Source of the DNA: Verrucomicrobiota bacterium
Lineage (GTDB): Bacteria; Verrucomicrobiota; Verrucomicrobiia; Chthoniobacterales; UBA6821
Reading direction: 5' to 3'
Length of the DNA stretch: 17,507 bases
Assembly (NCBI GenBank): GCA_008932965.1
Contig: WBXG01000037.1
Location: forward strand, 1-17,507
Shown in pieces: positions 208 through 17,507 of this stretch. The notes under the pieces are model-generated. The model searched no databases. It saw nothing but the letters and a program-made list of their open reading frames with translations, and was not told the origin of the DNA. Within the stretch, counting starts at the first letter, position 1, and the number at the start of each line of letters is the position of its first letter. A program made the translations under genes and the position numbers.

Positions 208-229
208 GCATCATGGTTGAGTCTTTGAT

Positions 230-2274: not shown

Positions 2275-2291
2275 AGCATCTTAAAAAGAGT

Positions 2292-2476
2292 GAACCCGCA
2301 TATTTCATACTGAATCGTCATGAGGCGCCGTGCAAAGGTTATTAGTACAAGGCGGGCGAAGGATTGGGATGCCGGGCTGTATGTTTCATACTGTCCAAAT
2401 CAAAATATGAGTCTAACGCAGCATCCATCTGACTTCCCGGCTTCCGTAGTAGAATCGGTATGAAATATCCGGGTTA
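2292..2476. mobile_element. MITE-like imperfect-palindrome repeat, copy B (full length, 185 bp)
   Basis: The termini are ACCCGCATATTTCATACTGA and TCGGTATGAAATATCCGGGT|TA. The central hairpin is CTGTATG-TTT-CATACTG (2377-2393). The left arm is about 94% identical to copy G. The right arm aligns with copies D, F and A. It lies between the convergent porin and parB genes. Confidence 0.9.
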
Positions 2477-3370
2477 ATCCTGCGTCACTCCTAACTCTCG
2501 GATCAAACGATCCAAATCATCTGAACCATAATATTCAATAACAACCTGACCTTTTTTTTCTCCATGTTGAAGAAGGACGCGCGTTGAGAATCGATGTTGT
2601 AGTTTATTTTGTAGATGAAGCAGTACCGGCGGGAGATCCAGAGAGCTGTGGCGCTTTCTTGTTTTTCTAGCATCCTTGTTTTCTCTGAGATGGGCTTCGA
2701 CAAGTTCCTCAGTAGCCCGTACGGAGGCGCTTCGACGTAGAATCTGATTGGAAATGAACCGTTGCTCCTCGTGATTTTTAAGACCAAGAAGAACCTTCGC
2801 ATGTCCGACACTCAGGCGTCCTTGGATAAGAAAACTTTTTACTTCAGGATCGAGATCAAGCAGGCGTAGAGCATTGGCTACAACCGCACGGCTTTTACCA
2901 ACACGGCGCGCTATCTCTTCCTGAGTTAGGTGAAATTCAACTGCAAGACGTTCATAGGCGGTCGCCTCTTCAATGGGATTGAGCCCTTCACGCTGGAGAT
3001 TTTCAATTAAGGCAAGCTCTAAGACCTCTTGGTCTGAAGCTTTTCGAATAATAACCGGAACTTCATGGAGCCCTATTTCAATGGCTGCACGAAAGCGGCG
3101 CTCTCCGGCGATCAGCTCATAGTGGCTCCCCACCCTGCGAACAATCAGTGGCTGGATAATACCTCGCTCTCGAATGGATTCGATTAAGTCGTGTAGCTGC
3201 TCTTTCTTAAATTCAGTTCGTGGCTGCAGTGGGCTAGCTACAATTTTTGGAAGTGCCACTGTTTCGATTTGCTCCCCCTTTTCCTCTTGGGGTTTAGGAG
3301 AGCCGAGAGGGGAGGCACCGCGAGAGTTAATGAGGGACCCAAGACCTTTACCAAGTGCTGGCTTTGCCAT
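2474..3370 (-). CDS. parB: ParB/Spo0J-family chromosome partitioning protein
   Basis: 298 aa. Motifs: N-terminal GKGLGSLI, the ParB-box region IQPLIVRR...YELIAGERRFRAA, and the HTH LTQEEIARRVGKSRAVVANALRLL. The stop codon TAA (2474-2476) overlaps the terminal TA of MITE copy B. Confidence 0.9.
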   Translation of the reverse strand: MAKPALGKGLGSLINSRGASPLGSPKPQEEKGEQIETVALPKIVASPLQPRTEFKKEQLHDLIESIRERGIIQPLIVRRVGSHYELIAGERRFRAAIEIGLHEVPVIIRKASDQEVLELALIENLQREGLNPIEEATAYERLAVEFHLTQEEIARRVGKSRAVVANALRLLDLDPEVKSFLIQGRLSVGHAKVLLGLKNHEEQRFISNQILRRSASVRATEELVEAHLRENKDARKTRKRHSSLDLPPVLLHLQNKLQHRFSTRVLLQHGEKKGQVVIEYYGSDDLDRLIRELGVTQD

Positions 3371-3523
3371 AGAAAAAAATAGGAGTAGTGGAAGAGAGGT
3401 TTATGAGTAGCTGCAGGATGGTTAGCACATACAATTATAATAACTCCTCTTTTTTTACGAGATGGAATCTTTTAAAATGCATTATTGTCATAAATATAGT
3501 GTATTAAATTGAAAAGAGCATGT

Positions 3524-3690
3524 TAGCCCGAATATTTTACACTCAATCTATTGCAGCTTGTACAAATCATGTGAGGAAGGCTGACACCATAGGTGCGAGC
3601 AGCGATTACCTGAGGAAGACTTCGAACTCAACGCAGCATCTATCTAGCTTCCCGATCTCCGGAGGTGATGAGCGTGAACTATCCGGGCGA
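3524..3690. mobile_element. MITE-like imperfect-palindrome repeat, copy C (diverged)
   Basis: Left end TA|GCCCGAATATTTTACACTCA. Right end TGAGCGTGAACTATCCGGGC|GA (reverse complement GCCCGGATAGTTCACGCTCA). The internal block CAACGCAGCATCTATCTAGCTTCCCGATCTCCGGAGG aligns with the right arms of copies A and B. It lies in the divergent parB / ligase-like intergenic region. Confidence 0.8.
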
Positions 3691-3693
3691 GAT

Positions 3694-4410
3694 ATGTTTT
3701 CTCAGATGGATCTTTTTTTTTCTTCTACCCCTCTAGAAGGTCCAGAGCAGATGGCTTTAGACGAGGTCTTATTACGACACGCCACGCGACCCTTATTACG
3801 CCTTTATTGCTGGAGCGCTCCGTGTGTCACTTTTGGTTATTTTCAACAATGGAAGAAAGTTCAGGCTGCTTTTCCAGGACGCCAGCTTGTACGGCGCTCG
3901 AGCGGTGGGGGGTCGGTCGAGCATGATGGAGATAATACTTTTTCTCTTATTATTCCTCCCTCCGAGCCAGCAGGGAGGATTCCTCCATCTCTTTTTTATA
4001 AACGCTTTCATGAGGCTCTTGTGGAGGTCTTACACGCCTTTGGATGGAATGCCCGTCTCTTAGGTCTAGATGAAACCGTTCAGGGCGAGGCCTGTTTTCA
4101 AGCCCCCTCTCTTTATGATGTGATGATAGAAAATCAAAAAATTGTTGGAGGAGCACAGCGTCGCTCCGCTGGTACCTTGCTTCATCAGGGAAGTCTCCAT
4201 CTCCCTAGAAAATCAAAACTAGTAGCTGCCGTGGAAAAGGAAATTATCTCGCATGAGGCCTCCGAGTTAGCCCGAATATTTTTCTCTGCTCTCGCAGCAC
4301 ATTTATCCTCCAAGGTAACTCTTTTAAAAGAAGAGCCACTCTGGCTAGAAGAGGCATCATTACTTGCTCGTACACGTTATGGAACGCTCTCATGGACTCA
4401 AAAAAAGTAG
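3694..4410 (+). CDS. Lipoate--protein ligase family protein (BPL/LPL catalytic domain)
   Basis: Motifs: MALDEVLL, RRSSGGGSVEHD and KIVGGAQRR (the conserved Lys context of LplA/LipB-type enzymes). The track ORF starts at 3520 inside MITE C. The first ATG outside the repeat is 3694 (MFSQMDLFF...), 3 nt after the repeat end, and I take it as the start. Confidence 0.75.
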   Translation: MFSQMDLFFSSTPLEGPEQMALDEVLLRHATRPLLRLYCWSAPCVTFGYFQQWKKVQAAFPGRQLVRRSSGGGSVEHDGDNTFSLIIPPSEPAGRIPPSLFYKRFHEALVEVLHAFGWNARLLGLDETVQGEACFQAPSLYDVMIENQKIVGGAQRRSAGTLLHQGSLHLPRKSKLVAAVEKEIISHEASELARIFFSALAAHLSSKVTLLKEEPLWLEEASLLARTRYGTLSWTQKK

Positions 4411-4419
4411 CAAAGGGAT

Positions 4420-4600
4420 TAACCCGGATATTTCACACTAAATCTATTACGGCTTGTGGAAAGCTTATCATTACTGCTTCAGCCTCGAATTGCTCCTCGG
4501 GCAGTATGAAACATACAGCCCAAATCAAAATGTAAGTCTAACGCAGTATCCATTAGGTGTTCGCAAGCCGCAGTAGAATCGGGATGAAATATCCGGGTTA
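4420..4600. mobile_element. MITE-like imperfect-palindrome repeat, copy D (full length, 181 bp, TA on both flanks)
   Basis: TA|ACCCGGATATTTCACACTAA...GGGATGAAATATCCGGGT|TA. The left arm aligns with the reverse complement of its own right arm at about 65% identity. The central hairpin CAGTATG-AAA-CATACAG (4502-4518) is in the opposite orientation to that in B and G. Confidence 0.9.
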
Positions 4601-4691
4601 TATCAACTCCACGTTAGCTCTCGACGCTCGATGCTTACTCAAGCTATTTTATTGGGCTTTGATATCTCCAGCTGTTAACCCAAATACTCCT

Positions 4692-5600
4692 TTGAAAACT
4701 GATCACGTATTTTCTTCTGCTCTTAAGACCACTTCCCCACTACTTCTGGGACATTCTCCTGATCCGGATGATGCTTTTATGTTTTATGCTATGGCTGCAG
4801 GAAAAATCGATCTGCGTGGATACCACTTCGAACATATCTTACAGGATATTCAAACCCTCAATGAACGTGCGATGCGAGGAGAGCTTCATCTGAGTGCTGT
4901 TTCAATTCATGCCTATGCCCATCTGCTCCACAGTTACGCGCTCCTTCCTTGTGGAGCAAGTATGGGAGATGGATATGGTCCCATGTTTGTGACCCGTAAC
5001 TCACATGCAACGATGCCGTCCAATGATGCCTCACTCGAGGAGAAGAAAACATGGCTTCGCTGCCAAAGGATCGCTGTCCCAGGACTCATGACGAGTGCCT
5101 TTCTTTCAGCTCAGCTGCTGCTTGGCAAGGACTTCAATTATAGTGTAATTCCCTTTGATGAGATTTTTGAAGCTGTCACTACCGGTGCTGCTGATGTTGG
5201 ACTCATTATTCATGAAGGGCAACTTACTTACGCCCAGGAAGGGTTTTCAAAAATCCTCGATCTGGGAGAATGGTGGAAAGACTCTACAGGACTTCCACTG
5301 CCGCTCGGTGGCAATGTGATTCGCAAAGATTTTAATACCGAGCAACGTCGTGAAATAAACACCATCATGAAGGCCAGCATCCAGTATGGTCTTGACCATC
5401 GTGCCGCTGGTGTTGCCCATAGCATGGCTCATGCGCGCGGGATGGAGGTTCCCCTGGCCGACCGTTTCATCGGCATGTATGTTAATGATTACACCCTCGA
5501 CTATGGAGAGAGTGGCCGCGCTGCAATCCGCGAATTCCTTGGCCAAGGTGCAGAACGGGGATTAGTACCGAGGATAGACGAGCTCGAGTTTGTATCGTAG
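4692..5600 (+). CDS. MqnA/MqnD-family protein (futalosine-route menaquinone biosynthesis; periplasmic-binding-protein-like fold)
   Basis: The N-terminal LLLGHSPDPDDAFMFYAM motif and overall layout resemble the MqnA/MqnD family. The stop at 5600 is firm and the start is unresolved. The track start GTG 4557 and the ATG at 4584 both lie inside MITE D. TTG 4692 (or TTG 4659) is the first in-frame start outside the repeat and upstream of the conserved motif. Confidence 0.65.
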   Translation: MKTDHVFSSALKTTSPLLLGHSPDPDDAFMFYAMAAGKIDLRGYHFEHILQDIQTLNERAMRGELHLSAVSIHAYAHLLHSYALLPCGASMGDGYGPMFVTRNSHATMPSNDASLEEKKTWLRCQRIAVPGLMTSAFLSAQLLLGKDFNYSVIPFDEIFEAVTTGAADVGLIIHEGQLTYAQEGFSKILDLGEWWKDSTGLPLPLGGNVIRKDFNTEQRREINTIMKASIQYGLDHRAAGVAHSMAHARGMEVPLADRFIGMYVNDYTLDYGESGRAAIREFLGQGAERGLVPRIDELEFVS

Positions 5601-5656
5601 TAAGAGTTTTTTTATAGCAATGACTGGAATGAGCCTGGGATTTTATACGATTTTCC

Positions 5657-5796
5657 TAGCTCGGATATTTCATACTGATCGTGACGAGGAAGCCGTGAAG
5701 GCTGATGGGGCAACACCGGCGGTCGGGAGACTGCGGGGGAGACTGCATCAGGATTCGCGGCGCCTCGCGACGAATTAGTATGAAATATGCGGGCTA
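5657..5796. mobile_element. MITE-like imperfect-palindrome repeat, copy E (short form, 140 bp, TA on both flanks)
   Basis: TA|GCTCGGATATTTCATACTGATCGTGACGAGG...TCGCGACGAATTAGTATGAAATATGCGGGC|TA. The arms are mutually complementary (TCGTGACGAGGAAGCCGTGAAGGCTGATG versus the reverse complement TCGTCGCGAGGCGCCGCGAATCCTGATG). The centre carries a small tandem duplication, GGGAGACTGC at 5725-5734 and again at 5737-5746. Confidence 0.85.
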
Positions 5797-5824
5797 AATC
5801 GATGCATGAGCAGGGAATAAAAAA

Positions 5825-6988
5825 TCACTTTGCCTCCGTGGCCTTAGGGACGAATTCTTTCTTTACTGCCAGTAGTAAATTGGCCCCCCCGGATTCGGTA
5901 GTATTAAATTGATAACCTGTTCCAAAGGGCATGGGGCCACGCAGTCCGCAAGAATTAGAGGCATTAGCCAGTTCGGATTGATAATATTTTTTAAAGAGTT
6001 CAATAGGGCCTTGATAACAGCCAAAATAATAGAAGGCCCATCTATTTTTTTCAAAATAGCAAAGTGGAATTCCTGAGTCGTCTTGCAAAATTGTAGTTGA
6101 TTCGTTTAGAAGGAATTCACGAGCATGTGAAAATTCGTTTTCATGGAGTAGGTAGGAGGCTGCCTTAAGGTAGGCGGCACCTGAACCGAATGAGCGCACC
6201 CACTTTAAAAAGGAGGTGCTCCCATCATTACAAAGATTGACCTGGGCATAAAAAAGCTGTTGCTCCTGCCCTCCCGAGCGAGAAATAAATCGGATCTTCA
6301 CTCCTGGAGCACCTCCAAGACTCATCATTTCAATGCTTAAAATTTGATCCTCATGCAGTATTAGAAAAGTTAACAAGATGGGCAAAACCCCTTGAAGAGG
6401 ACCATTGCTCATCTGGTTTTTCATTTCTTTGGTAATAAAATAACCATAGAGCAAAAATGTTTTTGTCACTTCTCGAATCTGTGCTGATCCAAGCTGTAGC
6501 TCCTCTGGGGTGAGTTCTTCTATGGATTTCATTGTTCCAACCGGCTCGGTGCCACATAGAATATAGATCGGAGCCTCCGAAAAAAAAGCCATTACACTGA
6601 GGAGATCGGGTCCTCCAAAAAAATAACGAACCACTCGTGGCATCGGAATGCGTGAGGGTAATTCATGGCGAGCCCATTGTTTCATTGGCTCATAGCGCTT
6701 CTCGCTAAAATCTTTCCAAGCTGCTTGGATTGCTGGATCGTGCGCTAACCACTCGCTCGTGGTCGTAAAACCATTGGAAGCGTTGATGTCGGATATTGCA
6801 GACTGATCTTGCCGAGAAGGCCGCAAAGCCTGGTTTTGCAGAGGCAGGGGGTGATCTTTGAGCGGGGCTCTATGTTTCATACTGCTCGAGGAGAGGTCCT
6901 CGTTCACAGGAATAGCCCGACGTATCTCTTGCCCAGAAACAGAAGCTGCCCAGAGCAGGAAGAAAAAGGGGAGCTTTCGTGGTATCAT
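5825..6988 (-). CDS. Hypothetical exported protein (387 aa)
   Basis: Long uninterrupted ORF with the signal-peptide-like N-terminus MIPRKLPFFFLLWAASVSGQE. I recognise no catalytic or family motif. Confidence 0.6.
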   Translation of the reverse strand: MIPRKLPFFFLLWAASVSGQEIRRAIPVNEDLSSSSMKHRAPLKDHPLPLQNQALRPSRQDQSAISDINASNGFTTTSEWLAHDPAIQAAWKDFSEKRYEPMKQWARHELPSRIPMPRVVRYFFGGPDLLSVMAFFSEAPIYILCGTEPVGTMKSIEELTPEELQLGSAQIREVTKTFLLYGYFITKEMKNQMSNGPLQGVLPILLTFLILHEDQILSIEMMSLGGAPGVKIRFISRSGGQEQQLFYAQVNLCNDGSTSFLKWVRSFGSGAAYLKAASYLLHENEFSHAREFLLNESTTILQDDSGIPLCYFEKNRWAFYYFGCYQGPIELFKKYYQSELANASNSCGLRGPMPFGTGYQFNTTESGGANLLLAVKKEFVPKATEAK

Positions 6989-7128
6989 CTCAGATCCTAT
7001 TTATTTCTTTTTTTATAAAAAATGAAAGAACTTACAGAATCTCCTTGAGACATTGCTCACTCTCCGCAATGCTATCCCTCCGCTTTTGAATTTATTGTTC
7101 CCCAACAAAAAAATGAAGCGTCATTCAT

Positions 7129-7278
7129 TGAGAACCTGTATTCAAAGTCGTTGAGACTGATGAAAAACAAGGAGTCGACGGCGCAGAGACTCATAGTGTA
7201 CACGAGGCACTCAAGGAGGCGAGCACCGGTGCGATGCTGTTATTCGAATTCTCAGTAGAGTCTGAATATAGGTTCTTA
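7129..7278. mobile_element. Divergent palindromic repeat (second subfamily of the MITE-like elements)
   Basis: The termini are AGAACCTGTATTCAAAGTC and GACTCTGAATATAGGTTCT|TA (reverse complement AGAACCTATATTCAGAGTC; counting the gapped extension the left end runs on as GTTGAGACTGATG). Compare AACC-TATATTCAGACT with AACCCGGATATTTCATACT of the main family. The GC-rich internal arms (CAAGGAGTCGACGGCGCAGAG / CAAGGAGGCGAGCACCGGTGCG) resemble the arm CAAGGCGGGCGAAGG in B and G. Confidence 0.6.
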
Positions 7279-7293
7279 ATTTAACATCTGAAA

Positions 7294-7299
7294 TATAAT
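7294..7299 (+). promoter_or_regulatory. Perfect -10 hexamer TATAAT, 6 nt upstream of the bS22-like ATG (possible leaderless transcript)
   Basis: TATAAT at 7294-7299. A start site about 7 nt downstream would coincide with the A of ATG 7306. There is no Shine-Dalgarno sequence. Any -35 would fall in the right terminus of the repeat at 7129-7278 and is weak. Confidence 0.25.
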
Positions 7300-7305
7300 A
7301 CCCCA

Positions 7306-7410
7306 ATGGGATCCATTAAAAAGAAACGCAAATCTAAAATTGCAAAGCATAAACGTCGTAAACGGATGAAACTAAACCGTCACAAAAAACGTCTGCGGTA
7401 TAAGTCTTAA
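7306..7410 (+). CDS. bS22-like small basic ribosomal protein (AURKAIP1/COX24-type, 34 aa); not in the supplied ORF track
   Basis: Hand translation: MGSIKKKRKSKIAKHKRRKRMKLNRHKKRLRYKS*. The MGS(V)IKK(R)RK...KHRK pattern matches, from memory, the actinobacterial/Bacteroidetes bS22 family (M. smegmatis [21 protein letters not shown]...). Confidence 0.6.
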   Translation: MGSIKKKRKSKIAKHKRRKRMKLNRHKKRLRYKS

Positions 7411-8009
7411 TCCTTCAAAGAAAAACGGATTGGGATCAGTACTGTAGAAGTAATTGCTTGGCTATGACGATGAGCAGGGTAAAAAACCCAGCTCCTTTCT
7501 ACTGTTGTTAAAGCCTGTTGATCGAGGATGGGATAACCCGAGGAACCTTGTACTCCCAGGTGAGTTATTGTTCCATGCTCATTGACTGTGACACATAGCA
7601 GAACTGTTCCTTCATGACCTTGCTGCCGCTCTCCCTCGGGGTAGAGCGGTTGGGGATTATGAAGATAGCGTGGCAGGACATCTTGAGCCCCTGATGAAGC
7701 AGAGAAGGATTGTTGATGTGGACAGGAAGCAGAGATCTGTTTTTGAAAATGAGGGAAGGATTTACTTGTTTTAGAAGTAACTTCTCTATGAGCAGTGATA
7801 TTTTTTGTTGCCTCAGGAGATATTCCCTTTTTTTCACGGTACGGTGCCTCCAGGAGTATTAGCTCAAGACTTGAGAACCCTTTTGAAAGGCTGTATTGAG
7901 GCGGCTCTACCGAGGAATAGAGGAAAAACAATAGTACCCCATGGATCCCTAGTGCCATGACACAACAAATCCAATAGGAGCGTTTAAAAAGTATATTCAA
8001 TACCTCCAT
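7407..8009 (-). CDS. tonB: TonB-family energy transducer
   Basis: N-terminal membrane anchor WICCVMALGIHGVLLFFLY, a linker, then a C-terminal TonB domain (YPEGERQQGHEGTVLLCVTVNEHGTITHLGVQGSSGYPILDQQALTTVERSWVFYPA). It overlaps the receptor gene end by 26 nt, which suggests operon coupling. The alternative start Met18 would be at 7958. Confidence 0.8.
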   Translation of the reverse strand: MEVLNILFKRSYWICCVMALGIHGVLLFFLYSSVEPPQYSLSKGFSSLELILLEAPYREKKGISPEATKNITAHREVTSKTSKSFPHFQKQISASCPHQQSFSASSGAQDVLPRYLHNPQPLYPEGERQQGHEGTVLLCVTVNEHGTITHLGVQGSSGYPILDQQALTTVERSWVFYPAHRHSQAITSTVLIPIRFSLKD

Positions 8010-10125
8010 AAATAGATGCCCCGTCTCCAGGGAAAAATTGAGCTAGGTAGGCTTTAGGCGCTTGTGCATTGGCAATCACTCCAGTAGTGGCTGCATAAGT
8101 AGTGTTACTAAGATTCATGGTTTCTACATAAAAGGAACATCCGCGTTTCGGCCGGTAACCCATTTTAAATCCTAAAATAGCATAGGGGGCTGTGAAGAGA
8201 GTTGCTGCTGCATCGACATTGTAGCCAACTGGAACCCATTCGACATTGGGGCCAGCATAAAATCCTCGTGGGTGCTCATAGAGCAGTTCGGCTCGGTAGT
8301 AGAGGAGTGGAATACCGGGCAACTGGTTGTTTCCATACTGAGGATCATTAGCAAAATGAAAATCATTAAAAAGCCCCACCTGCTTGAGGTAGAGACGATC
8401 TCGGCCATTTTTAGGAAAATCGAATTCCTTTTTTTTATCTAACGTTGCAGTTGTTGTCGTGGAATGACAAAAAAGCGAATTGCAGAGCGTGACATCGAAT
8501 CCCAATTCAACGCCTTGATGGATTGTTTGGCCTGCGTTGGTATTAAGAACAGAAGGGCCTGTAGAGGTGTTCACACTATAGGGAAAAATTTCGTTCTCCA
8601 CCCATGAATAGTAATAAGCCAGATCCCACCGATAGCGCCCAGCACGTCCACGGGTACCGGTTTCCAGTGTGGTAGCAGTGGTGGCTTTCAGTGGCATAAT
8701 TCCTTGATAACTCGGATTCACAAGCTCTGCAAAAGAAGGGGGTGAAAAACTACGACTGATATTTCCAAAAAGCTGTGCCTCTGGTGTCACGTCATAGAGC
8801 AATCCCCATTGAGGCGAATATCCCCAATAGGTTTGTGTGCCACTGTTATCGATGTTGTTGGGCTGATTCCAGAGGCTCGTATTTTGCCGCACTGCGTAGG
8901 TGACCGCAGTTCCGGCTACGGTCGAGAGCTTCTTTGTGAGATAAAACTGATCTTGGACAAAAAAATTGAAGTTTGAGGCAAGTTCTTCATCATGGTCTAT
9001 TTGTTTCCCGGCGTTTCCATTGTTGTTGAGGTAGACTGGCTCATCGGTGATGCCCCAGCTAGGATTCAAGCCGAGGGTGAGTTTATTTTGATGCTGTAAA
9101 ACTTCCTGCTCATTTTTCCATTGCAGCATGAATCCTAAATCATCATTCACATCTCCCAAAAAGAGTGCCATGGCATGATGTGTAAAGTTGACATGATTCC
9201 AATAAACTTGAGCCTCGGCTTTATTCTCTCCCTCTTGCCAGGTCGTCTTGTCGGCAACACGGAGGAAATCATAATCTTTTTGCCAGTTGTTCCTGCTATT
9301 GGTCGGGTTTGCTTGTTTAGGATTACTCTCGAGCTGAGATTTTGTCAGACCACCTGGCATTTGAGAGAGAGTCTGGACGTAGGTAAAATAGAGCCGCGTT
9401 TCCAAATGCTCTGAAATTTTATCTCCGATATTAGAAAAAAGGCGCATGTTCGACTGATTGCTATGATTACGATAACCATCTGTGAAGCCAGTACTGATGC
9501 TCGAATAATAATCGTATTTTCCTAGGACACATCCTGAACTGACTTGTCCTTTGAACGTATTGAAACTTCCATATTCAAAACGTGCTGTGAGTGGTGGTGT
9601 ATCATATCCGGTGAAAGAGACAAAATTAATTGCCCCTCCCAAATTCGTAGAGCCATACTCGAGGGAGTTGGCGCCGCGATAAACCTCCATGTAACGCGTG
9701 GCAAGAGGCTCGATGGATTGCATATTAAAAGTCCCATCGGCAAAATTAATGGGCATTCCATCTTGGAGCAGCTGGATACCGCGTCCTCCACACATCCCGC
9801 GCTGAATTCCAGAGCCACGAATAGAAATACGTGACTCTTCTTGGCCAAAACGTGGTTGTACATACACCCCAGGAGCCCATTGCAAGGCATCTTTGAGTGT
9901 GGAGTAACGACCCGTCTTATAAGAGTTGGCATTGATCACCTCAACCGCTCCGGCGCGCTGGGCGAGCTCTTGCTCTTTACTTTTAAATTCTTGAACGGTT
10001 AGCGAGGCGTTGGATTTTCCCGAAACAAGCACTTCGGGAAGGAGCAGCGGGGGGTCATTAGAAAAAGTGGAGTAGACAGCACTTATGCTAATAAAGAAAA
10101 AAAGGAGAACAAAAGATCTCTTCAT
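7984..10125 (-). CDS. TonB-dependent outer-membrane receptor
   Basis: It has a plug region (AGAVEVINANSY...ESRISIRGSG...GIQLLQDGMPIN), a long beta-barrel and the terminal ...GGIEYTF. I prefer the ATG at 10125 (MKRSFVLLFFFISISAVYS, a canonical signal peptide) over the track start at 10170. Confidence 0.85.
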   Translation of the reverse strand: MKRSFVLLFFFISISAVYSTFSNDPPLLLPEVLVSGKSNASLTVQEFKSKEQELAQRAGAVEVINANSYKTGRYSTLKDALQWAPGVYVQPRFGQEESRISIRGSGIQRGMCGGRGIQLLQDGMPINFADGTFNMQSIEPLATRYMEVYRGANSLEYGSTNLGGAINFVSFTGYDTPPLTARFEYGSFNTFKGQVSSGCVLGKYDYYSSISTGFTDGYRNHSNQSNMRLFSNIGDKISEHLETRLYFTYVQTLSQMPGGLTKSQLESNPKQANPTNSRNNWQKDYDFLRVADKTTWQEGENKAEAQVYWNHVNFTHHAMALFLGDVNDDLGFMLQWKNEQEVLQHQNKLTLGLNPSWGITDEPVYLNNNGNAGKQIDHDEELASNFNFFVQDQFYLTKKLSTVAGTAVTYAVRQNTSLWNQPNNIDNSGTQTYWGYSPQWGLLYDVTPEAQLFGNISRSFSPPSFAELVNPSYQGIMPLKATTATTLETGTRGRAGRYRWDLAYYYSWVENEIFPYSVNTSTGPSVLNTNAGQTIHQGVELGFDVTLCNSLFCHSTTTTATLDKKKEFDFPKNGRDRLYLKQVGLFNDFHFANDPQYGNNQLPGIPLLYYRAELLYEHPRGFYAGPNVEWVPVGYNVDAAATLFTAPYAILGFKMGYRPKRGCSFYVETMNLSNTTYAATTGVIANAQAPKAYLAQFFPGDGASIYGGIEYTF

Positions 10126-10350: not shown

Positions 10351-10534
10351 TAACATGGATATTTCATACTGATCGTGACGAAAAAGTCGCGAAGGGTAAT
10401 GCAGCAAGGCCTACGAGTATTTTAACGCAGAACTCTATGAGTAGAGCCCTCCCCAAATCAAAATGGGAGTCATACACACAGCATCCAGCTGGCTTCCTGG
10501 CTTGCGTGTAAATTCGTATGAAATATTTGAGCTA
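10351..10534. mobile_element. MITE-like imperfect-palindrome repeat, copy F (full length, 184 bp, TA on both flanks)
   Basis: TA|ACATGGATATTTCATACTGATCGTGACG...TTCGTATGAAATATTTGAGC|TA. The start of the left arm matches copy E. The right arm (CCCCAAATCAAAATGGGAGTC...CAGCATCCAGCTGGCTTCCTGGCTTGCGTG) aligns with B and D. Confidence 0.9.
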
Positions 10535-10951: not shown

Positions 10952-10999
10952 CGTGGAGATGTTTTGAGAGCTAGAAACGGTGATAAGACGGATTACACG

Positions 11000-11072
<73 letters not shown>

Positions 11073-11091
11073 ATCTGTATCAAGGTCGGTA

Positions 11092-11119
11092 ATTCTTCAC
11101 ATTCTGCACGGTCTGTCAA
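11092..11119 (-). promoter_or_regulatory. Candidate sigma70-type promoter for tRNA-Gly
   Basis: On the minus strand there is a perfect -35 TTGACA (11119-11114), a 16-nt spacer and the -10-like AAGAAT (11097-11092). The -10 ends 19 nt upstream of the mature tRNA 5' end. Confidence 0.4.
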
Positions 11120-11136
11120 TTTTTCAATTTTCTTTC

Positions 11137-11172
11137 TAGCGTGGATATTTCATGCCGATGGTGACGGGGATT
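11137..11172. mobile_element. MITE left-end fragment (copy P), embedded in the 3' end of the pqiA-like gene
   Basis: CTAGCGTGGATATTTCATGCCGATGGTGACGGGG (11136-11169) matches the left end of copy E (CTAGCTCGGATATTTCATACTGATCGTGACGAGG) at 28/34 positions. It is followed by CCCAAATC, a motif found next to the central hairpin of full copies. More degenerate similarity may extend to about 11215. Confidence 0.65.
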
Positions 11173-11650
11173 CCCAAATCCATTGGGGGCGGTAGAGCTC
11201 ATATGCAAAAATATTACACAATAAAACAGCTGAAAAAAAGAGTGCTCCTGGTTCTGCATGAATACTTGCCAACATTCCGAGCTGACCCACGGCAGCGATA
11301 ATGGAGAGTAGAAAAATGTCAATCATCGCCCAATTTCCGATTTTAATCATGATACGATAGAGTCGACATCGCTCCTCACAATAGATTGGTTTTCCATGAA
11401 GCCATAACATCCAACTCATGATGATCAGCTTTAAAAAAGGAACAACGATACTTGCTAAAAAAATGATCAAACCGACCGGCCATAATCCCGAATGAACCAT
11501 CTCTTGAACTCCTCCCATCACAGTAAGTGGGCTTGTATTACCATTAAGAGTCATGGTCATTACCGGCACCACATTTGAAGGAATATAGAAAATAGCCCCG
11601 GTTAGGACCATGGCTTTGACTAGAGAAAGCTGTTGTGTTGACGTCATCAT
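11150..11650 (-). CDS. PqiA-family integral membrane protein (second half-gene)
   Basis: 166 aa, multi-TM, with PqiA-like motifs (PVMT...GG...W...LASIVVP..K; ...W.MIDIF..). It lies 9 nt downstream of the first PqiA-like ORF. The last codons and the TGA stop (11150-11152) lie in MITE fragment P. Confidence 0.7.
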   Translation of the reverse strand: MMTSTQQLSLVKAMVLTGAIFYIPSNVVPVMTMTLNGNTSPLTVMGGVQEMVHSGLWPVGLIIFLASIVVPFLKLIIMSWMLWLHGKPIYCEERCRLYRIMIKIGNWAMIDIFLLSIIAAVGQLGMLASIHAEPGALFFSAVLLCNIFAYELYRPQWIWESPSPSA

Positions 11651-11659
11651 GACACTTCA

Positions 11660-12283
11660 TTATGAAATATTGAGGTTCGTAATAATTTTCTCAAAAAAGG
11701 AACGGTCAAAAAATCGCATTACAATAAGGGATACAATGGCTAACAGGCCCACCCATAGGGATCCTGATTTCCAATGAATATTTCCTAGTTGTTCTAATTT
11801 TACAACGGCTGCCAGGGTCCCTACGGCAAAAACGGGCATCAGATTCCAGGGTAATAAAGTTTCTACTAGGATTAGTGCTATTTTAAGGCCTGGCCAGGAG
11901 AGCCTCAGGCAGCATCCTGCTAGTAAATACCAAAATGCGGCAAAGTAGAGAATAGGTAGTCCTATTGCAGAAAAAAAAACGAGAAGGGCTAACGGCCAGT
12001 AGCCTTGAGAGAAAAGGCTCTCAACACCAGTGATCATCAAATTAGATTGTGTGTTTCCAGAAACATCAAAAACCATGAGCGGCCTCACATTAGCCATCAG
12101 TAAAAAAATCAGGCAGGCTGTCACCAAAGCCCATGCTATTTGCAAAGAATTAGGATCTCCATATTTTTTGAGGCTTTTCCCACATCGTATGCAGAGCAGT
12201 TCCTCACCCGGACTAAGCCTGCAATCAATGTAGGAGGCGGAGCAATCGGAGCACGATTTTAAAAATAAAGGATCATGATGCAC
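11660..12283 (-). CDS. PqiA-family integral membrane protein (first half-gene, with a Cys-rich N-terminus)
   Basis: 207 aa. The zinc-ribbon-like CSDCS...C...CIRCG N-terminus followed by several TM helices is the arrangement of paraquat-inducible protein A domains. Confidence 0.75.
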   Translation of the reverse strand: MHHDPLFLKSCSDCSASYIDCRLSPGEELLCIRCGKSLKKYGDPNSLQIAWALVTACLIFLLMANVRPLMVFDVSGNTQSNLMITGVESLFSQGYWPLALLVFFSAIGLPILYFAAFWYLLAGCCLRLSWPGLKIALILVETLLPWNLMPVFAVGTLAAVVKLEQLGNIHWKSGSLWVGLLAIVSLIVMRFFDRSFFEKIITNLNIS

Positions 12284-12401
12284 AGTGTTACCAATTAAAG
12301 CTTACATGGAGCCAACCGTCAAAAGTTTCTAACAAGAAAAAAGAAAGATTTTGGAACCCAGATATTCACTTTTGAGCCTAATGGGTTAGATGGAGATGGT
12401 A

Positions 12402-13298
12402 TTACTCACCATCCAAATACCGCTGATTCATTCCCTCATAAGCATCAATACGTCGGTCCCGCAAGAATGGCCAGTGCGTGCGCTGTGTATTTAGCAATGA
12501 AAGATCAAGGTCTGCAATCAAGACCTCTTCCTCATTCTCGGAAGCCTCCACAACAAGTGAACCATCAGGGGCGGCAATAAGGCTGCTTCCCCAAAATTCA
12601 AGCCCCTCTCCACCTGCAGGAGCCTCATGGCCAATACGATTAATCCCGGCTACATATACTCCGTTTGCAAGAGCATGAGCGCGCTGGGCAAGCTGCCAGG
12701 CCTCTTTTTGTTTTTTTCCAAATTCTTTTTTTTCACTTGGGTGCCATCCAATGGCGGTAGGATAAAATAAGACCTCTGCTCCACGCAGTGCAGTAAGACG
12801 TGCTGCTTCTGGATACCACTGATCCCAGCAGATGAGGACTCCTATCCTTCCTGCCTGAGTACTCCAAGAACGAAACCCGAGATCCCCTGGGGTAAAATAA
12901 AATTTTTCGTAAAAAAGAGGATCATCAGGAATATGCATCTTGCGGTACTTGCCAAGGTATGTTCCATCGGCATCCAAAATAGCAGCACTATTGTGATAGA
13001 GACCCGGGGCACGCCTCTCAAAAAGGGAGCCAATGACCACAATTCCATATTCTTTAGCAAGGGCCCCTAACGCCATTGTTGTAGGACCAGGAATGGGTTC
13101 AGCTAATTCAAAATAGGAATGATCCTCTTTTTGACAAAAATATTCGCTTAAGAAGAGTTCTGGCAAACAAACAACCTGAGCCCCCCTTGCAGCAGCCTCT
13201 TTAATAAAAAGTTGTGCTTTTTCTAAATTGAGGAGTGGATCAGCGCTGCAGCGCATTTGCACTAATCCGACTCGAAGCACCTTGGATGTATGAACCAT
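12402..13298 (-). CDS. aguB: N-carbamoylputrescine amidase (carbon-nitrogen hydrolase superfamily)
   Basis: 298 aa. The nitrilase-superfamily triad contexts are CLPELF (Glu), YRKMHIPD (Lys) and VLICWDQWYPE (Cys). Overall similarity is to AguB-type enzymes of the agmatine-to-putrescine route. Confidence 0.85.
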   Translation of the reverse strand: MVHTSKVLRVGLVQMRCSADPLLNLEKAQLFIKEAAARGAQVVCLPELFLSEYFCQKEDHSYFELAEPIPGPTTMALGALAKEYGIVVIGSLFERRAPGLYHNSAAILDADGTYLGKYRKMHIPDDPLFYEKFYFTPGDLGFRSWSTQAGRIGVLICWDQWYPEAARLTALRGAEVLFYPTAIGWHPSEKKEFGKKQKEAWQLAQRAHALANGVYVAGINRIGHEAPAGGEGLEFWGSSLIAAPDGSLVVEASENEEEVLIADLDLSLLNTQRTHWPFLRDRRIDAYEGMNQRYLDGE

Positions 13299-13361
13299 AT
13301 GAAAAAAGAATGTGGATATTGCAAAGCTATCACAATAGAATAACGACTCACAACTTTCTCT

Positions 13362-13946
13362 ATGAAAAAAAATCTTTTAAAATTCTACGCTCCCTTCTTC
13401 ATGGCCTCCACGATAGCTGGTGCTGCTTCACCAGCTGCCGCTCATGATATTCGCATTGTTATTAATACGGACAAAGGAGCTATCCATGCAACTCTCTTTG
13501 CGAGCAAGGTTCCAATCACAACGGCTAATTTTCTCAACCTTGCCAAGCATGGTTTTTATAACGGACTTACCTTCCATCGTGTGATTGCTGATTTTATGAT
13601 TCAAGGTGGCGATCCAACAGGAACAGGAAGTGGTGGTCCTGGATATAAATTTGCTGATGAAATTGATCCACGTCTCAAACATGATCGTGCAGGGGTCTTC
13701 TCAATGGCAAACTCTGGCCCCAATACCAATGGAAGCCAATTTTTCATTACCCATGGACCTACCCCATGGCTCGATGGGAAACATGCTGTTTTTGGTGTGG
13801 TCGATCAGGGGCAAGACGTTGTCAATGCGATAAGAAAGGGAGATAAAATTATTTCCATCGATATCCTCGATAAGACAGATACTCTCTTCCAAGAGGAGTC
13901 TAAGGAGATCGCAGCCTGGGATAAAAAATTGAACTTAAAATCGTAG
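13362..13946 (+). CDS. Cyclophilin-type peptidyl-prolyl cis-trans isomerase, exported
   Basis: Cyclophilin signatures [15 protein letters not shown] and [18 protein letters not shown]. The N-terminal signal peptide is [27 protein letters not shown]. Confidence 0.9.
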
Positions 13947-13975
13947 TGCCGTATGGGCTCAGCGTTACTGACCCC

Positions 13976-15850
13976 TCATTCACATAGAGGGGTTGTGAGT
14001 GCTCTGCCAATGTTAAGGTGGCGTTGATCGATGATTTTTCCTTCGAGCCCAGGGCTATGATCTGCGTTGGCCAGAAGGTGTTTGATTAAGCTTTGATACG
14101 AGGCTTGAGGACAATGTTTTTTGAGTAATACAAGAGAACCAGTGACAAAGGCTGTTGCCATTGAGGTCCCTGAATAGCGTACATAGGAGCTATCCGATTC
14201 ATTCGATGTAGAGAGAATATCGCATCCAGGAGCTGCGATATGCACACTCTTAGCTCCGTAATTGGAAGTGGAACTCAGCTCTATCGTGCTCGACCAAGAA
14301 AATCCTGAAGCTGCTACGGAAATAATATTATCTAGGCCGTAGCCAACGCTATAGCCTGCTGGAAAGGTCGGATGTTCGTCATTGTTATATTGGATTGTTT
14401 GTGTTACTTGGCAATGATCCTGCCGTTGTGTGATCGTAGCATCCGGGAGTTTCTCAGGCTTTGAAATCTGGGAGGGGTTAGAATATGTTTTTTTGACTGT
14501 TGCTGCATTTCCTGCTGCAGCAACAATCATCACCCCTGCTCTTTGAGCTTTCTGCAAGCACTCAACGAGCATAGGAGAGCTCGTAGATTCATATGAGTGA
14601 TCGTAATCACCCAGCTTGTTGGGATTAACATGGCTCGGATTTAAATAATTTGTCATCACAAAGCTACAATTTAATATCGATGCTCCATGCCTGACGGCAT
14701 AGTCGATACAGGTAATCAGGTCGCTCTCGGTTCCCACACCAGCCGAATTTTCTGAGTCCTTCAAACATCGGCATGCCATTAGTTTGACCTTGGGAGCAAC
14801 TCCAAAGGTCCCCCTGTGGACTCCGCCATCTTTACTAATACCCATCCCCCCAATAATACCTGCAATATGCGTTCCATGTCCTGTTTTACTAATATCCATC
14901 GATGCATCGTTTTCATTAATCATATCAATACCATGGAGACTCCCCTCCTTTTCTTCAGCAGGATCAGACCAGAGGTTTCCGCTAAGATCTTCGTGCGTTA
15001 ATCGAATGCCAGAGTCTAGAACGGCCACGATCGGCAGGGTGGCATCATTCATTAAAGAGGGAGTCTCTGGGGGCTCGACCTGCCAGGCATCATAAGCATC
15101 AATCCCTCCACACTCCCTCCATAATCCCCATTGATTTTCTAAATTCCAAAATGATGGAAGATAGCTAGGAATATTACTACTACAGGAATGGAGCATCCAC
15201 ACAGGCTCTGCCCTCACTCCATCGAGCGAGGCAATCTTTTCTAATGCCTCAGGAATCGCTTCTAACGAACTACTACGAAGCGTTAGATCATAAAGAAAAC
15301 CCTCTGGAGTTACTTTGTTAATAGCAGAGGCCCCAAAATTTTTGAGAAAATGCTGAGGATCCTCACCTATTGGGAGTGTAACTAAAAGATGATCTGCGAG
15401 CATCTCTCCTCGATCCATAAGTTCACCACTCTGATCATCAACAATCTCTTCGGTACGAATCAGTCCGGAAGTAGAAGTGCGGGAAGTAAAAGCTGTTTTT
15501 AAAATACGATGGTAGATTTTTTCATGACGTTGGGATCCTGCTAGCCAAGCTAGTTCAGCGGCCTCTTGGACCACCGCTCTAGGATAAAAAAGTAATTCTT
15601 CCTCAGAGGGTTCCTGCAAAGGGGCAGGAGTACCATGGAGTGAAGTTCGCTTGGATGTGGCCACAGAAATTGATTTGCGTGGCGTGATTGAATGGAGCGA
15701 TGAAGCAGCATGGGAGAGCTTGTTAACTTCGGTTTTCTTTTCTTGAGATAAAAAGGAGCGTCCTTTCCAAAAGATAAGAGCAATCAGTAATGGTGCAACG
15801 GCTAGGAAGAGGAGATAACAACGTTTTGAGGTAAATAAGGAAAAGCGCAT
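13976..15850 (-). CDS. S8-family (subtilisin-like) serine protease, membrane-anchored or secreted
   Basis: The catalytic triad contexts are VAVLDSGI (Asp), GHGTHIAGIIGG (His) and SGTSMATAFVTG (Ser). There is an N-terminal hydrophobic anchor (CYLLFLAVAPLLIALIFW) and a long pro-region. Confidence 0.88.
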   Translation of the reverse strand: MRFSLFTSKRCYLLFLAVAPLLIALIFWKGRSFLSQEKKTEVNKLSHAASSLHSITPRKSISVATSKRTSLHGTPAPLQEPSEEELLFYPRAVVQEAAELAWLAGSQRHEKIYHRILKTAFTSRTSTSGLIRTEEIVDDQSGELMDRGEMLADHLLVTLPIGEDPQHFLKNFGASAINKVTPEGFLYDLTLRSSSLEAIPEALEKIASLDGVRAEPVWMLHSCSSNIPSYLPSFWNLENQWGLWRECGGIDAYDAWQVEPPETPSLMNDATLPIVAVLDSGIRLTHEDLSGNLWSDPAEEKEGSLHGIDMINENDASMDISKTGHGTHIAGIIGGMGISKDGGVHRGTFGVAPKVKLMACRCLKDSENSAGVGTESDLITCIDYAVRHGASILNCSFVMTNYLNPSHVNPNKLGDYDHSYESTSSPMLVECLQKAQRAGVMIVAAAGNAATVKKTYSNPSQISKPEKLPDATITQRQDHCQVTQTIQYNNDEHPTFPAGYSVGYGLDNIISVAASGFSWSSTIELSSTSNYGAKSVHIAAPGCDILSTSNESDSSYVRYSGTSMATAFVTGSLVLLKKHCPQASYQSLIKHLLANADHSPGLEGKIIDQRHLNIGRALTTPLCE

Positions 15851-15923
15851 GAATGGGGAGATAAAATGAAAAGCTGTTACCTGTTTTACACAAAATTAAT
15901 TCGTTAGGGTGTTAAGTGCGATT

Positions 15924-16107
15924 TAACCCGGATATTTCATACTGAAGTGTCATGAGGCGCCGTGCAAAGCTTATTAGTACAAGGCGGGCGAAGGATTGGG
16001 ATGCCGGGCTGTATGTCTCATACTGCCCAAATCACAATTCGAGACCAACGCAGTAATGATGAGCTTTCCACAAGCCGTAATAGATTTAGTATGAAATATG
16101 CGGGTTA
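15924..16107. mobile_element. MITE-like imperfect-palindrome repeat, copy G (full length, 184 bp, TA on both flanks)
   Basis: TA|ACCCGGATATTTCATACTGAAGTGTCATGAGG...TTTAGTATGAAATATGCGGGT|TA. The left 109 nt nearly equal copy B. The right 73 nt are the reverse complement of the left arm of copy D. Confidence 0.92.
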
Positions 16108-17336
16108 ACAGCAAGCAACGTCAACTTCTCAAAGAGACTCTTGGCATGAGAGAGGAGTTTTTCCCGCTCATCACCAACGAGAGTAAAATGACCCATCTTG
16201 CGACCTGGCATGGCCTCTTTTTTCCCGTAGAGATGGAGGTGCAGATGCGGCTCGGCAAGGAGAAGATCCCAATGGGGCTCACCTGCCTGCCAAAGATCAC
16301 CTAAAAGATTGACCATCACTGCCTCCGACACTAACTCGGTTGACCCAAGGGGAAGACCTACAACAGCACGAATCACTTGTTCGAACTGGCTTGTCTTAGA
16401 GGATTCCAAACTGTGATGCCCCGAATTATGCGGACGTGGGGCAAGTTCATTAACAAGAAATGTTCCATCAGCAAGGAGAAATAATTCTACTGTAATGAGT
16501 CCAACAACCCCAAGAGCCTCTGCAATAGCCGTTCCTAGTGCCTCTCCTGGTGCCTCTCCTGGTGCCTCCCCTGGAAAGCAAGGAGAGGTAATGGTGATAT
16601 CAAGAATACCATGACGATGATGGTTTTCTTGCATGGGAAAAGAGAGCACTTCTCCCTGAAGCGACCGTGCTGTGATGATAGAGGCCTCGTTGACAAAAGA
16701 GATTTTTTTTTCTAGTACCGCACGTGGTGTCTTAAGTGCATCCCAAGCAGCAGCACAATCATCACCTGGTTCAAGAGGAGACTGTCCCTTTCCATCGTAT
16801 CCGAGCGTTGCCGTTTTTAGAATGCAGGGAGCATTAAAAAAATGCAGAGCTTTTTCGAGTTCCTCCTTTGAGGTAATAACCTTAAAAGGAGCAATAGGAA
16901 ATCCATGGGCACGAAGAAATTCTTTTTCTAAAATACGATCTTGGCAAATGTGAACTACCTCCGGCTTTGGATAGACCGGCTTGAGCAAGGCCAGTTCTTG
17001 CAATGCAGCTACTGGAATATTTTCAAATTCCAAAGTAATCACGTCGACTCTTTGAGCAAAACGTTGTAGAGCATCATGATCATCGAAAGATCCTGTGATC
17101 ATCTCATCTGCAACACTAGAGGCAGGCCCATCGGCAATCTTATCAAATACGCAAACACGGTATCCTAAGCGTTGAGCAGCTTGAGCCATCATCATACCTA
17201 GTTGGCCACTTCCTAAAATCCCAATACAGGAACCAGGCACTAATGGTTCTAATGGCAAGGTGGGGCTTAAACTAGATATTTTATGCTCATGATCTTCTGA
17301 AGTCAGGAAGCCAGATGGATGCTGTGTTAAGGTCAT
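16086..17336 (-). CDS. purK: N5-carboxyaminoimidazole ribonucleotide synthase (PurK, ATP-grasp)
   Basis: 416 aa. Motifs: GILGSGQLGMMMAQAAQRLGY, ATP-grasp core, NELAPRPHNSGH and GRKMGHFT. It has an unusual N-terminal extension of about 35 aa, an in-frame (PGEA)3 repeat, and final codons plus stop that lie inside MITE G. Confidence 0.9.
   Translation of the reverse strand: MTLTQHPSGFLTSEDHEHKISSLSPTLPLEPLVPGSCIGILGSGQLGMMMAQAAQRLGYRVCVFDKIADGPASSVADEMITGSFDDHDALQRFAQRVDVITLEFENIPVAALQELALLKPVYPKPEVVHICQDRILEKEFLRAHGFPIAPFKVITSKEELEKALHFFNAPCILKTATLGYDGKGQSPLEPGDDCAAAWDALKTPRAVLEKKISFVNEASIITARSLQGEVLSFPMQENHHRHGILDITITSPCFPGEAPGEAPGEALGTAIAEALGVVGLITVELFLLADGTFLVNELAPRPHNSGHHSLESSKTSQFEQVIRAVVGLPLGSTELVSEAVMVNLLGDLWQAGEPHWDLLLAEPHLHLHLYGKKEAMPGRKMGHFTLVGDEREKLLSHAKSLFEKLTLLAVNPHISY
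16539..16574. repeat. 3 x 12-bp perfect or near-perfect tandem repeat inside purK
   Basis: TGCCTCTCCTGG at 16539-16550, TGCCTCTCCTGG at 16551-16562 and TGCCTCCCCTGG at 16563-16574. On the coding strand it encodes GEAPGEAPGEA. Confidence 0.95.
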
Positions 17337-17361
17337 TTTATTTACTACATTTGAAGAGTCT

Positions 17362-17390
17362 TAGGCTCGATATTTCATACTGAAGTGTCC
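17362..17390. mobile_element. MITE left-end fragment, interrupted by the next copy
   Basis: TA|GGCTCGATATTTCATACTGAAGTGTCC matches the first ~25 nt of the left arm of copies G and B (GGATATTTCATACTGAAGTGTCATGAGG). It then breaks off exactly where a new terminus (TA|GCCCGGATATTTCATACTGA) begins. Confidence 0.8.
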
Positions 17391-17507
17391 TAGCCCGGAT
17401 ATTTCATACTGATTCTGCTGCGGCTTGCGAACACCTGATGGATACTGCGTCAGCCTCGAATTGCTCCTCGGGCAGTATGAAACATACAGCCGTCGTCGCA
17501 ATCCATC
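17391..17507. mobile_element. MITE-like imperfect-palindrome repeat, copy H (truncated by the window end)
   Basis: TA|GCCCGGATATTTCATACTGATTCTGCTGCGGCTTGCGAACACCTGATGGATACTGCGT is the reverse complement of the right arm of copy D (about 5 mismatches in 60). The stretch 17450-17491 is identical to D 4479-4520. Confidence 0.88.

Follow-up and report, generated by a model that had tools for sequence, protein, structure and literature searches.

Bacterial miniature inverted-repeat transposable elements, or MITEs, are known as non-coding, multi-copy sequences of <300 bp with terminal inverted repeats (TIRs) and TA-containing duplications, which lie mostly between genes, fold into long hairpins and form clusters by inserting into one another (PMC2229807, PMC10969869). 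These general properties are common to Correia/NEMIS of Neisseria, ERIC/IRU of enterobacteria and RUP of pneumococcus, and they are shared by the elements considered here, a set of repeats in a 17,507-nt stretch of DNA from a Verrucomicrobiota bacterium of the order Chthoniobacterales (contig WBXG01000037.1, assembly GCA_008932965.1, positions 1 to 17,507; hereafter “the window”). MITEs of the Correia/ERIC/RUP type comprise subtype variants and longer forms that arose from internal insertions. Set beside them, the Chthoniobacterales elements differ in duplicating 4 bp (YTAR) rather than TA alone, in having a candidate cognate insertion sequence (IS) of the IS1380 rather than the IS630 family, in their verrucomicrobial host, and in comprising at least six co-adapted arm subfamilies with ~20% chimeras and a breakpoint hotspot at the palindromic centre. 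We consider it probable that these repeats are recombining IS1380-type hairpin MITEs, i.e., mobile units of several coexisting subfamilies among which chimeras arise by exchange between copies.

IS5 targets 5'-YTAR-3' and duplicates 4 bp (PMC5009759, PMC10359306), which is the identical motif and duplication length, though the ends of the Chthoniobacterales MITEs are found instead on IS1380-family elements. As a partner IS5 was rejected: YTAR fits, but its terminal repeats (GGAAGGTGCGAA…) bear no relation to those of the MITEs, and a phmmer search of the loci with InsH gave nothing at E≤10. BIMEs and REPINs, composed of RAYT-mobilised REP sequences, are interspersed hairpin repeats with modules in alternating orientation (PMC2817692), and in this modular layout they resemble our elements. 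REPs, however, are 20–40-nt units with GTAG or CGTC heads, no target duplication and a Y1 (RAYT) transposase, whereas here arms of 80–100 nt belong to one transposed element with terminal repeats, YTAR and a DDE partner; there was no RAYT among the open reading frames (ORFs) examined, no systematic RAYT search having been run. In Rfam, tRNA-Gly alone reaches the gathering threshold in the window, and nothing relevant appears at E≤1 over 2250–5850. The elements have the defining features of bacterial MITEs, and are neither IS630-type elements, partners of IS5, REPs, BIMEs or REPINs, nor members of an Rfam family. Our search of the literature on Chthoniobacterales MITEs returned no description of them, while it is already known in principle that MITEs vary by subfamily, nest and recombine, and no new kind of system is revealed here.

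The window belongs to the JGI metagenome contig Ga0209191_1000787, and the genome behind it is sampled over 23 kb only. Further loci were found by an exact-pattern scan for the terminal motif, one genome per species, which gave at least 83 stretches from at least three metagenome-assembled genomes (MAGs); among the matches listed, nearly all come from Kiruna_bin-02438, Tobar2m-G38 and Deming_bin.170, which are freshwater Chthoniobacterales (“Spartobacteria”) MAGs. In these stretches many copies occupy unrelated loci in both orientations, and the repeats form a MITE family that is abundant in such MAGs. The window contains 15 occurrences of the shared core TTTCATAC where 0.57 would be expected, a count reached in 0/200 shuffles. 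The mobile unit is CCCGSATATTTCATAC…GTATGAAATATSCGGG, with a canonical copy of ~182 bp that is non-coding; the ORFs within elements are read-through from neighbouring genes or spurious calls only. A census of the MAG loci plus the window (~555 kb) counted 312 outer ends; adjacent ends converge in 103 pairs, of which 64 fall in the modal length bin of 180–189 nt. Long forms of about 265–305 nt (~277 nt) have an additional hairpin module of ~95 nt in their interior, half-elements of 103 nt (n = 2; L011:2488 and L078:5956) have terminal repeats at both ends, and minimal hairpins of 64–66 nt, present in four MAGs, lack the arms.

Aligned copies share the plan of a long imperfect hairpin: TIR, S1 (~40 nt), S2 (~22 nt), a palindromic centre, S2', S1' and TIR. 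One arm is drawn from a set that we call T2, with S1 types b, e and f (g and h in long forms) and S2 alleles alpha, beta, gamma and delta, and the opposite arm from a set T1, with S1 types a, c and d and, facing the T2 alleles, the S2 alleles A1/A2, B1/B2, G1 and D1. The centre is GGCTGTATG-n3/4-CATACyG, and its tip stem exists in compensatory variants (GTATG…CATAC in 52 copies, GTGTG…CACAC in 6). The centre, GTATGAAACATAC / ATGTTTCATACTG, also resembles the terminal repeat ATATTTCATACTG. Helix 1, formed by the ends CCCGSATATTTCATAC and their inverse, has >93% of its cells paired.

Mobility and a 4-bp YTAR target duplication are seen in the insertion of one element into another. At L079:2525-2709 a complete e/d element is nested within a b-alpha/A2-a element at GAGT-CTAA-CGC, with CTAA on both sides, and the same host site is unbroken in >40 other copies. 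Orthologous empty sites were also compared between MAGs, where the flanks proved too diverged, and the filled/empty comparison rests on the nested insertion. Among 78 elements, the left and right TA are preceded by the same base in 65 and followed by the same base in 62, Y stands on the left in 76 and R on the right in 77, and the R and Y that had been taken for terminal bases complement each other in just 51. From these flank statistics, the element proper is CCCGG…CCGGG and the duplication is the 4-bp YTAR, not TA. A TA-only duplication, as in IS630 or Correia-like elements, is ruled out since the duplication extends to the bases next to TA. In 11 pairs of neighbouring elements, the two members share one TTAA.

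The same ends are carried by IS1380-family insertion sequences. Members of the IS1380 family are listed in ISfinder at 1.55–2.0 kb, with 4–5-bp direct repeats and “Cc” ends. To look for an autonomous element, metagenome contigs were scanned for terminal repeats that run on into a base unused by any MITE arm, and 17 loci were returned. In one of these (L105, a contig of 1854 bp) lies an IS of ~1.57 kb, bounded by CCCGCATATTTCATACTGAG… and …ATATGAAATATGCGGG and flanked by CTAA left and right, with a single ORF of 437 aa that matches Pfam DDE_Tnp_1_4 (PF13701; 3.9e-163) and the NCBIfam IS1380 transposase equivalog NF033539 (400.6 bits; cutoff 180). A second IS of the same kind (L106; flanks TTAA and TTAG) has a 453-aa ORF that scores 415.1 bits against NF033539 and an E of about 1e-163 against PF13701, and L096 and L110 carry further homologues. 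In their DDE transposase, length, CC start and 4-bp duplication both ISs are like IS1380, ISEcp1 and IS942; the window, unlike these, holds only non-autonomous derivatives that share the ends. The L105 copy is inserted in a long-form MITE of the f/c type, and IS and MITE therefore share a genome. Both ISs have in common with the MITEs the ~19-nt terminal repeat and the YTAR duplication, and an IS1380-type transposase probably mobilises the MITEs, as we infer from these shared ends. Past the terminal repeat, the subterminal sequence of L105 and L106 resembles no MITE arm; the MITE is a terminal-repeat sharer rather than a simple deletion derivative of these IS copies. To our knowledge no high-copy MITE family is known for IS1380, ISfinder not having been searched.

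Candidate transposases between convergent ends in the MAG loci were also considered and all proved to be ordinary genes (TolC-like, OMP decarboxylase-like, ATCase, LolE-like) with element-encoded extensions. Nine metagenome loci (L097, L099, L101, L103 and L107–L111; Ga01941xx) contain a GC-rich MITE family of ~125–150 nt with the same terminal repeat (TAGCCCGGATATTTCATACTGAGCTTGAATCCGCGACAGT…GTGCATGAAATATGCGGGCTAG) and unrelated arms, apparently from a different, GC-richer source; since the terminal repeat is shared, the same IS1380-type ends seem to have spawned several MITE families. Fragments of the IS left end, in which the terminal repeat is followed by GAGACAGAAAATGG…, lie at L095:12044-12290, L104:4514 (minus strand) and L100:13662. 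In L095, ~190 nt of the IS left end are joined directly to the long-form MITE module …GAGCAGGTGCGAGCGAGTCAATATG, a fusion that could be an intermediate between IS and MITE.

A sequence-only reading of the window had described the copies as mosaics of exchangeable arm modules, had set this against copy-and-decay of one master MITE and had pointed to frequent recombination or gene conversion between copies. Among 67 full-length copies, linked arm combinations predominate, namely e-gamma/G1-d (10 copies), b-alpha/A1-a (9), b-alpha/A2-a (6–8), b-beta/B1-a or b-beta/B2-a (15) and f-delta/D1-c (8), and 13–15 copies (~20%) have other combinations. When the 67 copies were parsed as Viterbi paths against six subfamily consensus sequences, 54 (~80%) needed no switch, 10 needed one and three needed two. 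Of the 16 breakpoints, 10 fall within 28 alignment columns spanning the S2 end and the centre (~12% of all columns); the others lie mainly at the S2'/S1' junction (ACGCAG) or inside S1 (L054 by the parse, L060:3702 and L086:3602 by eye in the alignment). In a PHI test on 149 informative sites, the observed value was 1.013 against 1.121±0.019 in 2000 permutations, none as low (p < 0.0005), a signal that module heterogeneity may inflate. The mosaics are real, and with about one-fifth of copies being hybrids between subfamilies, simple decay from one master does not describe the family. What did not stand is free shuffling: the family consists of discrete co-adapted subfamilies plus recurrent exchange (~20% recombinants).

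The same counts bear on the idea that arm types are always linked in fixed combinations, each a lineage diverged by mutation and spread by transposition without exchange. The sequence-only reading had named this as its refutation, and the 54 unswitched copies, with their strong linkage of arm types, come close to it. It could also accommodate two chimeric types that each occur twice (b-beta/D1-c and e-gamma/A2-a) as well as subfamilies as yet unseen in a genome sampled over so short a stretch. It is nonetheless improbable. The two e-gamma/A2-a copies have different centres and hence different breakpoints; blocks of 94–100% identity adjoin blocks of at best ~50–60% identity; and the PHI result is joined by S1/S2 incongruence even among the subfamily consensuses, in that the S1 pair b/a occurs with either alpha/A or beta/B, beta/B resembling delta/D of the f/c subfamily and alpha/A resembling gamma/G of the e/d subfamily.

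Of four copies in the window, two are canonical and two chimeric. Copy G (15923..16108, plus strand) is a canonical e-gamma/G1-d element without a switch and with a TTAA duplication on both sides, and copy H (17390..17507, minus strand) is a canonical f-delta/D1-c element that was inserted the other way round and is truncated where the window ends, in which the unit at 17399 reads c-D1-centre-delta'. Copy B (2291..2477, plus strand; flanks TGAA and TTAA) is a chimera of type e-gamma/A2-a, its left half e-gamma as in G and its right half A2-a, and the parse places the switch from the ed to the baA2 consensus in the centre. Copy D (4419..4601, plus strand; flanks TTAA and TTAT) is built of two arms of the T1 set, one of d with D1 and one of c with A2, in the order d(S1)-D1(S2)-centre-A2'-c', for which at least three exchanges from canonical forms are needed. 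The block relations that the sequence-only reading had drawn by hand alignment were reproduced exactly: B 2294–2402 and G 15926–16034 differ at 6 of 109 positions with right arms that align only loosely outside the terminal repeat, G 16035–16107 matches the reverse complement of D 4420–4492 with 7 mismatches in 73, D 4541–4600 that of H 17391–17450 with 5 in 60, and D 4479–4520 is identical to H 17450–17491 (42/42; the D1-plus-centre block). Its three quoted blocks of 22–23 nt were located at 2395, at 4479 and 17450 (as reverse complement) and at 16026, and a repeat search of the window recovered the direct and inverted relations independently.

The B-type arm combination occurs again at L011:5964 in another MAG, with a different centre. 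The MAG loci contain no orthologues of the window genes, so this is not the B locus, and the difference in centres implies that the two breakpoints are independent. The junctions of D (d-D1 and the T1-T1 centre) are restricted, among all data, to this one locus in the window and in L087 (ENA ERZ28593824), an assembly made independently in a different project, which again disfavours a lineage spread by transposition alone. L087 is a strain with 99.64% identity to window positions 520–5734 (19 substitutions over 5.2 kb, gap-free) and shows the same architectures of B, C and D, which are therefore not assembly chimeras. That short-read metagenome assembly mis-threaded the repeats and created the mosaics is for this reason very hard to credit, the more so as gene order across the repeats is kept in both assemblies, even though the comparison data are mostly MAG contigs, three short contigs of 2025 bp (L002, L089 and L090) may end at repeats or close to them, and L087 has an N-gap inside copy E.

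The recurrence of modules in both orientations, to which the sequence-only reading gave weight, is explained mostly by the orientation in which whole elements inserted, as with H. Pairs of arms of the same polarity do exist and are rare: T1-T1 in 3/67 copies (D plus two others) and T2-T2 in E. The same reading had offered assembly from independent half-elements as a second explanation. Arms would then be moved and joined by transposition rather than by recombination, and this found little support and seems to us unlikely. Half-elements with terminal repeats at both ends do occur, the centre looks like a terminal repeat, and the use of alternative (surrogate) ends is known for transposases of the IS1380 family such as that of ISEcp1. 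Yet no full element, D included, has a YTAR duplication at its centre junction; half-elements make up 2 of the 103 end pairs and are explained by deletion between direct repeats of the TIR and the TIR-like centre; and independent assembly does not predict the co-adaptation of native arms described below.

For recombining MITEs we propose the following course. An element inserts at YTAR and duplicates those 4 bp, and several subfamilies, the two arms within each mutually complementary, coexist. Chimeras such as B and D then result from sequence exchange between copies of different subfamilies at short conserved blocks, above all at the ~20–25-nt centre. No other conserved block in the interior is as long, and its palindromic sequence also allows arms of like polarity to be joined. 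The ~277-nt long, 103-nt half and 64–66-nt minimal forms come from nested insertion and from deletion between short internal repeats. We infer that exchange is driven by homology, whether as gene conversion, as crossover between dispersed copies or as template switching from another copy during repair of an excision gap. Two chimeras, L063:1615 and L085:477, have wholly different flanking 4-mers (TTAA vs. CTAG), as crossover would leave, and identical duplications flank 6 of 15 chimeras, as conversion or later transposition would leave.

Base pairing between the arms was followed in a 58-sequence alignment with 69 pairs taken from the majority minimum-free-energy (MFE) structure; an RNAalifold consensus was dropped, as nothing but the terminal stem and the tip emerged from it, the arm register being different from one subfamily to another. 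Paired cells amount to 83.9%, against 29–43% in slid controls. Changes on both sides affect 28 pairs, with 224 such cells against 85.5±12.4 in shuffles (0/500 as high), although few independent events may underlie them; the compensatory change that the sequence-only reading had asked about is thus present, at the level of subfamilies. When left and right halves were combined in silico, native pairs gave −90 to −105 and swapped pairs −58 to −99 kcal/mol. The arms accordingly stay paired at the subfamily level, and native arm pairs are co-adapted for pairing. The B-type combination is the weakest of its row (−66.7 kcal/mol) and B itself folds weakly (−64.7 kcal/mol, z −3.8) next to G (−78.4 kcal/mol, z −7.4), which indicates that chimeras are not selected for pairing; D folds at −74.9 kcal/mol (z −9.0).

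The two strands of the hairpin are not equivalent. The majority-MFE structure leans toward the folded strand, which biases the count of G·T against A·C pairs (355 vs. 135), and the unbiased comparison is the independent MFE of both strands: the strand reading from T2 to T1 is the more stable in 53/63 copies (means −83.8 vs. −73.2 kcal/mol; Wilcoxon p = 3.6e-8) and in all six subfamily consensus sequences, and in G the other strand reaches just −64.3 kcal/mol. Such figures, with compensatory covariation between arms and fold z-scores of −6 to −9, could be taken to mean that the hairpins are structured RNAs or regulatory elements selected by the host (e.g., mRNA stabilisers or processing sites), in which modules are swapped as only the fold matters. 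We regard this as implausible. Orientation relative to neighbouring genes is random (27 vs. 27 at 3' ends, 23 vs. 22 at 5' ends), so that a cis-regulatory role for the host is not indicated, and no Rfam family matches; target duplications, nested insertions and a cognate IS point to mobile DNA; minimal copies persist without arms and so do chimeras that fold poorly.

The existence of minimal copies also means that arms are not strictly required for spread, and the well-paired 182-nt forms are far more numerous than the 64-nt forms consisting of terminal repeats only. A more speculative possibility, doubtful but less so than host selection, is that the long hairpin itself is under selection on one strand, the MITE acting as a folded single strand. 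It draws on the compensatory arm changes, on G·U-type pairs that favour the T2-to-T1 strand by ~10 kcal/mol and on the excess of 182-nt forms. If true, the element would yield a hairpin RNA that is processed or functions in its own right, or a fold-back single-stranded DNA intermediate that joins the ends for an IS1380-type transposase; arm matching would set element fitness, and chimeras would be crippled by-products.

Several observations weigh against recombining IS1380-type MITEs as the full account. A plain cut-and-paste MITE model has no need of the strong arm co-adaptation or of the strand asymmetry in folding. Sharing between MITE and IS is limited to the ~19 nt of terminal repeat, and neither the ~555 kb of MAG loci nor the window contig yielded a copy of the IS. 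The recombination mechanism itself is unobserved: duplications match only slightly less often in chimeras (6/15) than in canonical copies (29/50), so that crossover, conversion and transposition after exchange are not separated. Enrichment of chimeras in element-dense loci was looked for and is not significant (p = 0.29), whence in-situ resolution of nested copies is not their main route. Locus choice required an exact terminal-repeat match, which makes the frequencies approximate, and apart from the window and L087 all data are MAG or metagenome assemblies.

With these reservations, the elements provide uncultured freshwater Chthoniobacterales with a defined high-copy mobile element that makes up roughly 9% of the window (sum of the listed parts). 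Known ends, a YTAR target and a candidate transposase should help MAG annotation, since many gene starts and stops here are element artefacts or element-supplied, and the element explains contig breaks in assemblies. Coexisting subfamilies, a measurable chimera rate and a breakpoint hotspot also offer a natural system in which to study MITE diversification and hairpin quality in relation to mobility.

The remaining copies in the window are more decayed or incomplete. Copy A (29..207, plus strand) is a degenerate full-length MITE of b-alpha/A-a type, delimited by a pair of outer ends with decayed terminal repeats; its single parent in the parse is baA1 at a high cost of 48, which suggests an old copy. 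Copy F (10351..10534, plus strand) is a degenerate b-alpha/A2-a MITE whose centre has been replaced (single parent baA2, cost 47). Copy C (3524..3691, plus strand), recognised from repeat families, an outer end at 3524 and reading of the sequence, is degenerate, its left arm d-like and its right arm B2-a, and overlaps the called lplA start. Copy E (5657..5796, plus strand) is a short T2-T2 element of 140 nt in which a b/h-type left arm and a g/f-type right arm are joined at a CTGC microhomology. In L087 a run of 100 N (5216–5315, at window 5735–5736) falls exactly at the GGGAGACTGC direct repeat inside E; its internal length is uncertain, and strains may vary in the true length or the window contig may contain E in collapsed form.

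Smaller remnants are scattered between these copies. A decayed fragment of arm plus centre at 6784..6893 (plus strand; repeat family at 69% identity, an inverted repeat and a core match at 6875) lies inside the N-terminal coding part of a 387-aa ORF (5825–6988, minus strand) that has no Pfam match; either the start of this ORF is mis-called or the protein is partly MITE-derived. A solo terminal repeat with a short arm remnant (11136..11193, plus strand; repeat family, 62%) adjoins tRNA-Gly and overlaps the 3' end of ORF 11150–11650, and a second, with an e-type start, was found through inverted repeats at the junction of two PqiA ORFs (11647..11678, minus strand). Near the window end, a decayed a-type arm fragment (17294..17339, plus strand), an inverted repeat 78% complementary to B 2404–2449, overlaps the purK start, and a truncated terminal repeat with 8 nt of e-type arm (17360..17390, plus strand; core match at 17373) abuts H.

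The genes of the window are ordinary housekeeping genes (OprB, ParB, LplA, MqnA, TonB, a TonB-dependent receptor, PqiA, a nitrilase-type hydrolase, PPIase, subtilase and PurK), and the repeats sit between them or at their extreme ends. The right-hand TTAA of B supplies the parB stop codon (2474–2476, minus strand), the last 7 codons of purK plus its stop (…VNPHISY*) lie inside the right end of G (16086–16107), and the called mqnA start is an ATG within the right terminal repeat of D (4584–4600). Across loci (L014:1121-1948 and others), seven ORFs end exactly at the terminal TAR and six end 22 nt inside the element; as YTAR followed by CCC keeps TAA or TAG, the stop is preserved when an element inserts in a stop codon.

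A scan of viral contigs gave one chance match, inside a coding sequence. Two further repeats in the window are distinct from the MITEs above. In the OprB-family ORF (556–2274), the N-terminal non-porin part contains a 126-nt direct repeat with 88% identity (694–819 and 901–1026), a tandem protein repeat at 207-nt spacing. At 7127–7281 a second, unrelated hairpin repeat of ~155 nt has ends TTGAGAACCTGTATTCAAAG… and …CTGAATATAGGTTCTTAA, folds at −53.1 kcal/mol (z −3.2) and matches nothing in Rfam; with relatives at L046:1322 and L082:1942 in other gene contexts, it is probably another low-copy MITE-like family. Close by, at 7307–7411 (plus strand), a tiny ORF encodes an extremely basic peptide of 34 aa (MGSIKKKRKSKIAKHKRRKRMKLNRHKKRLRYKS), which may resemble the small ribosomal protein bS22.

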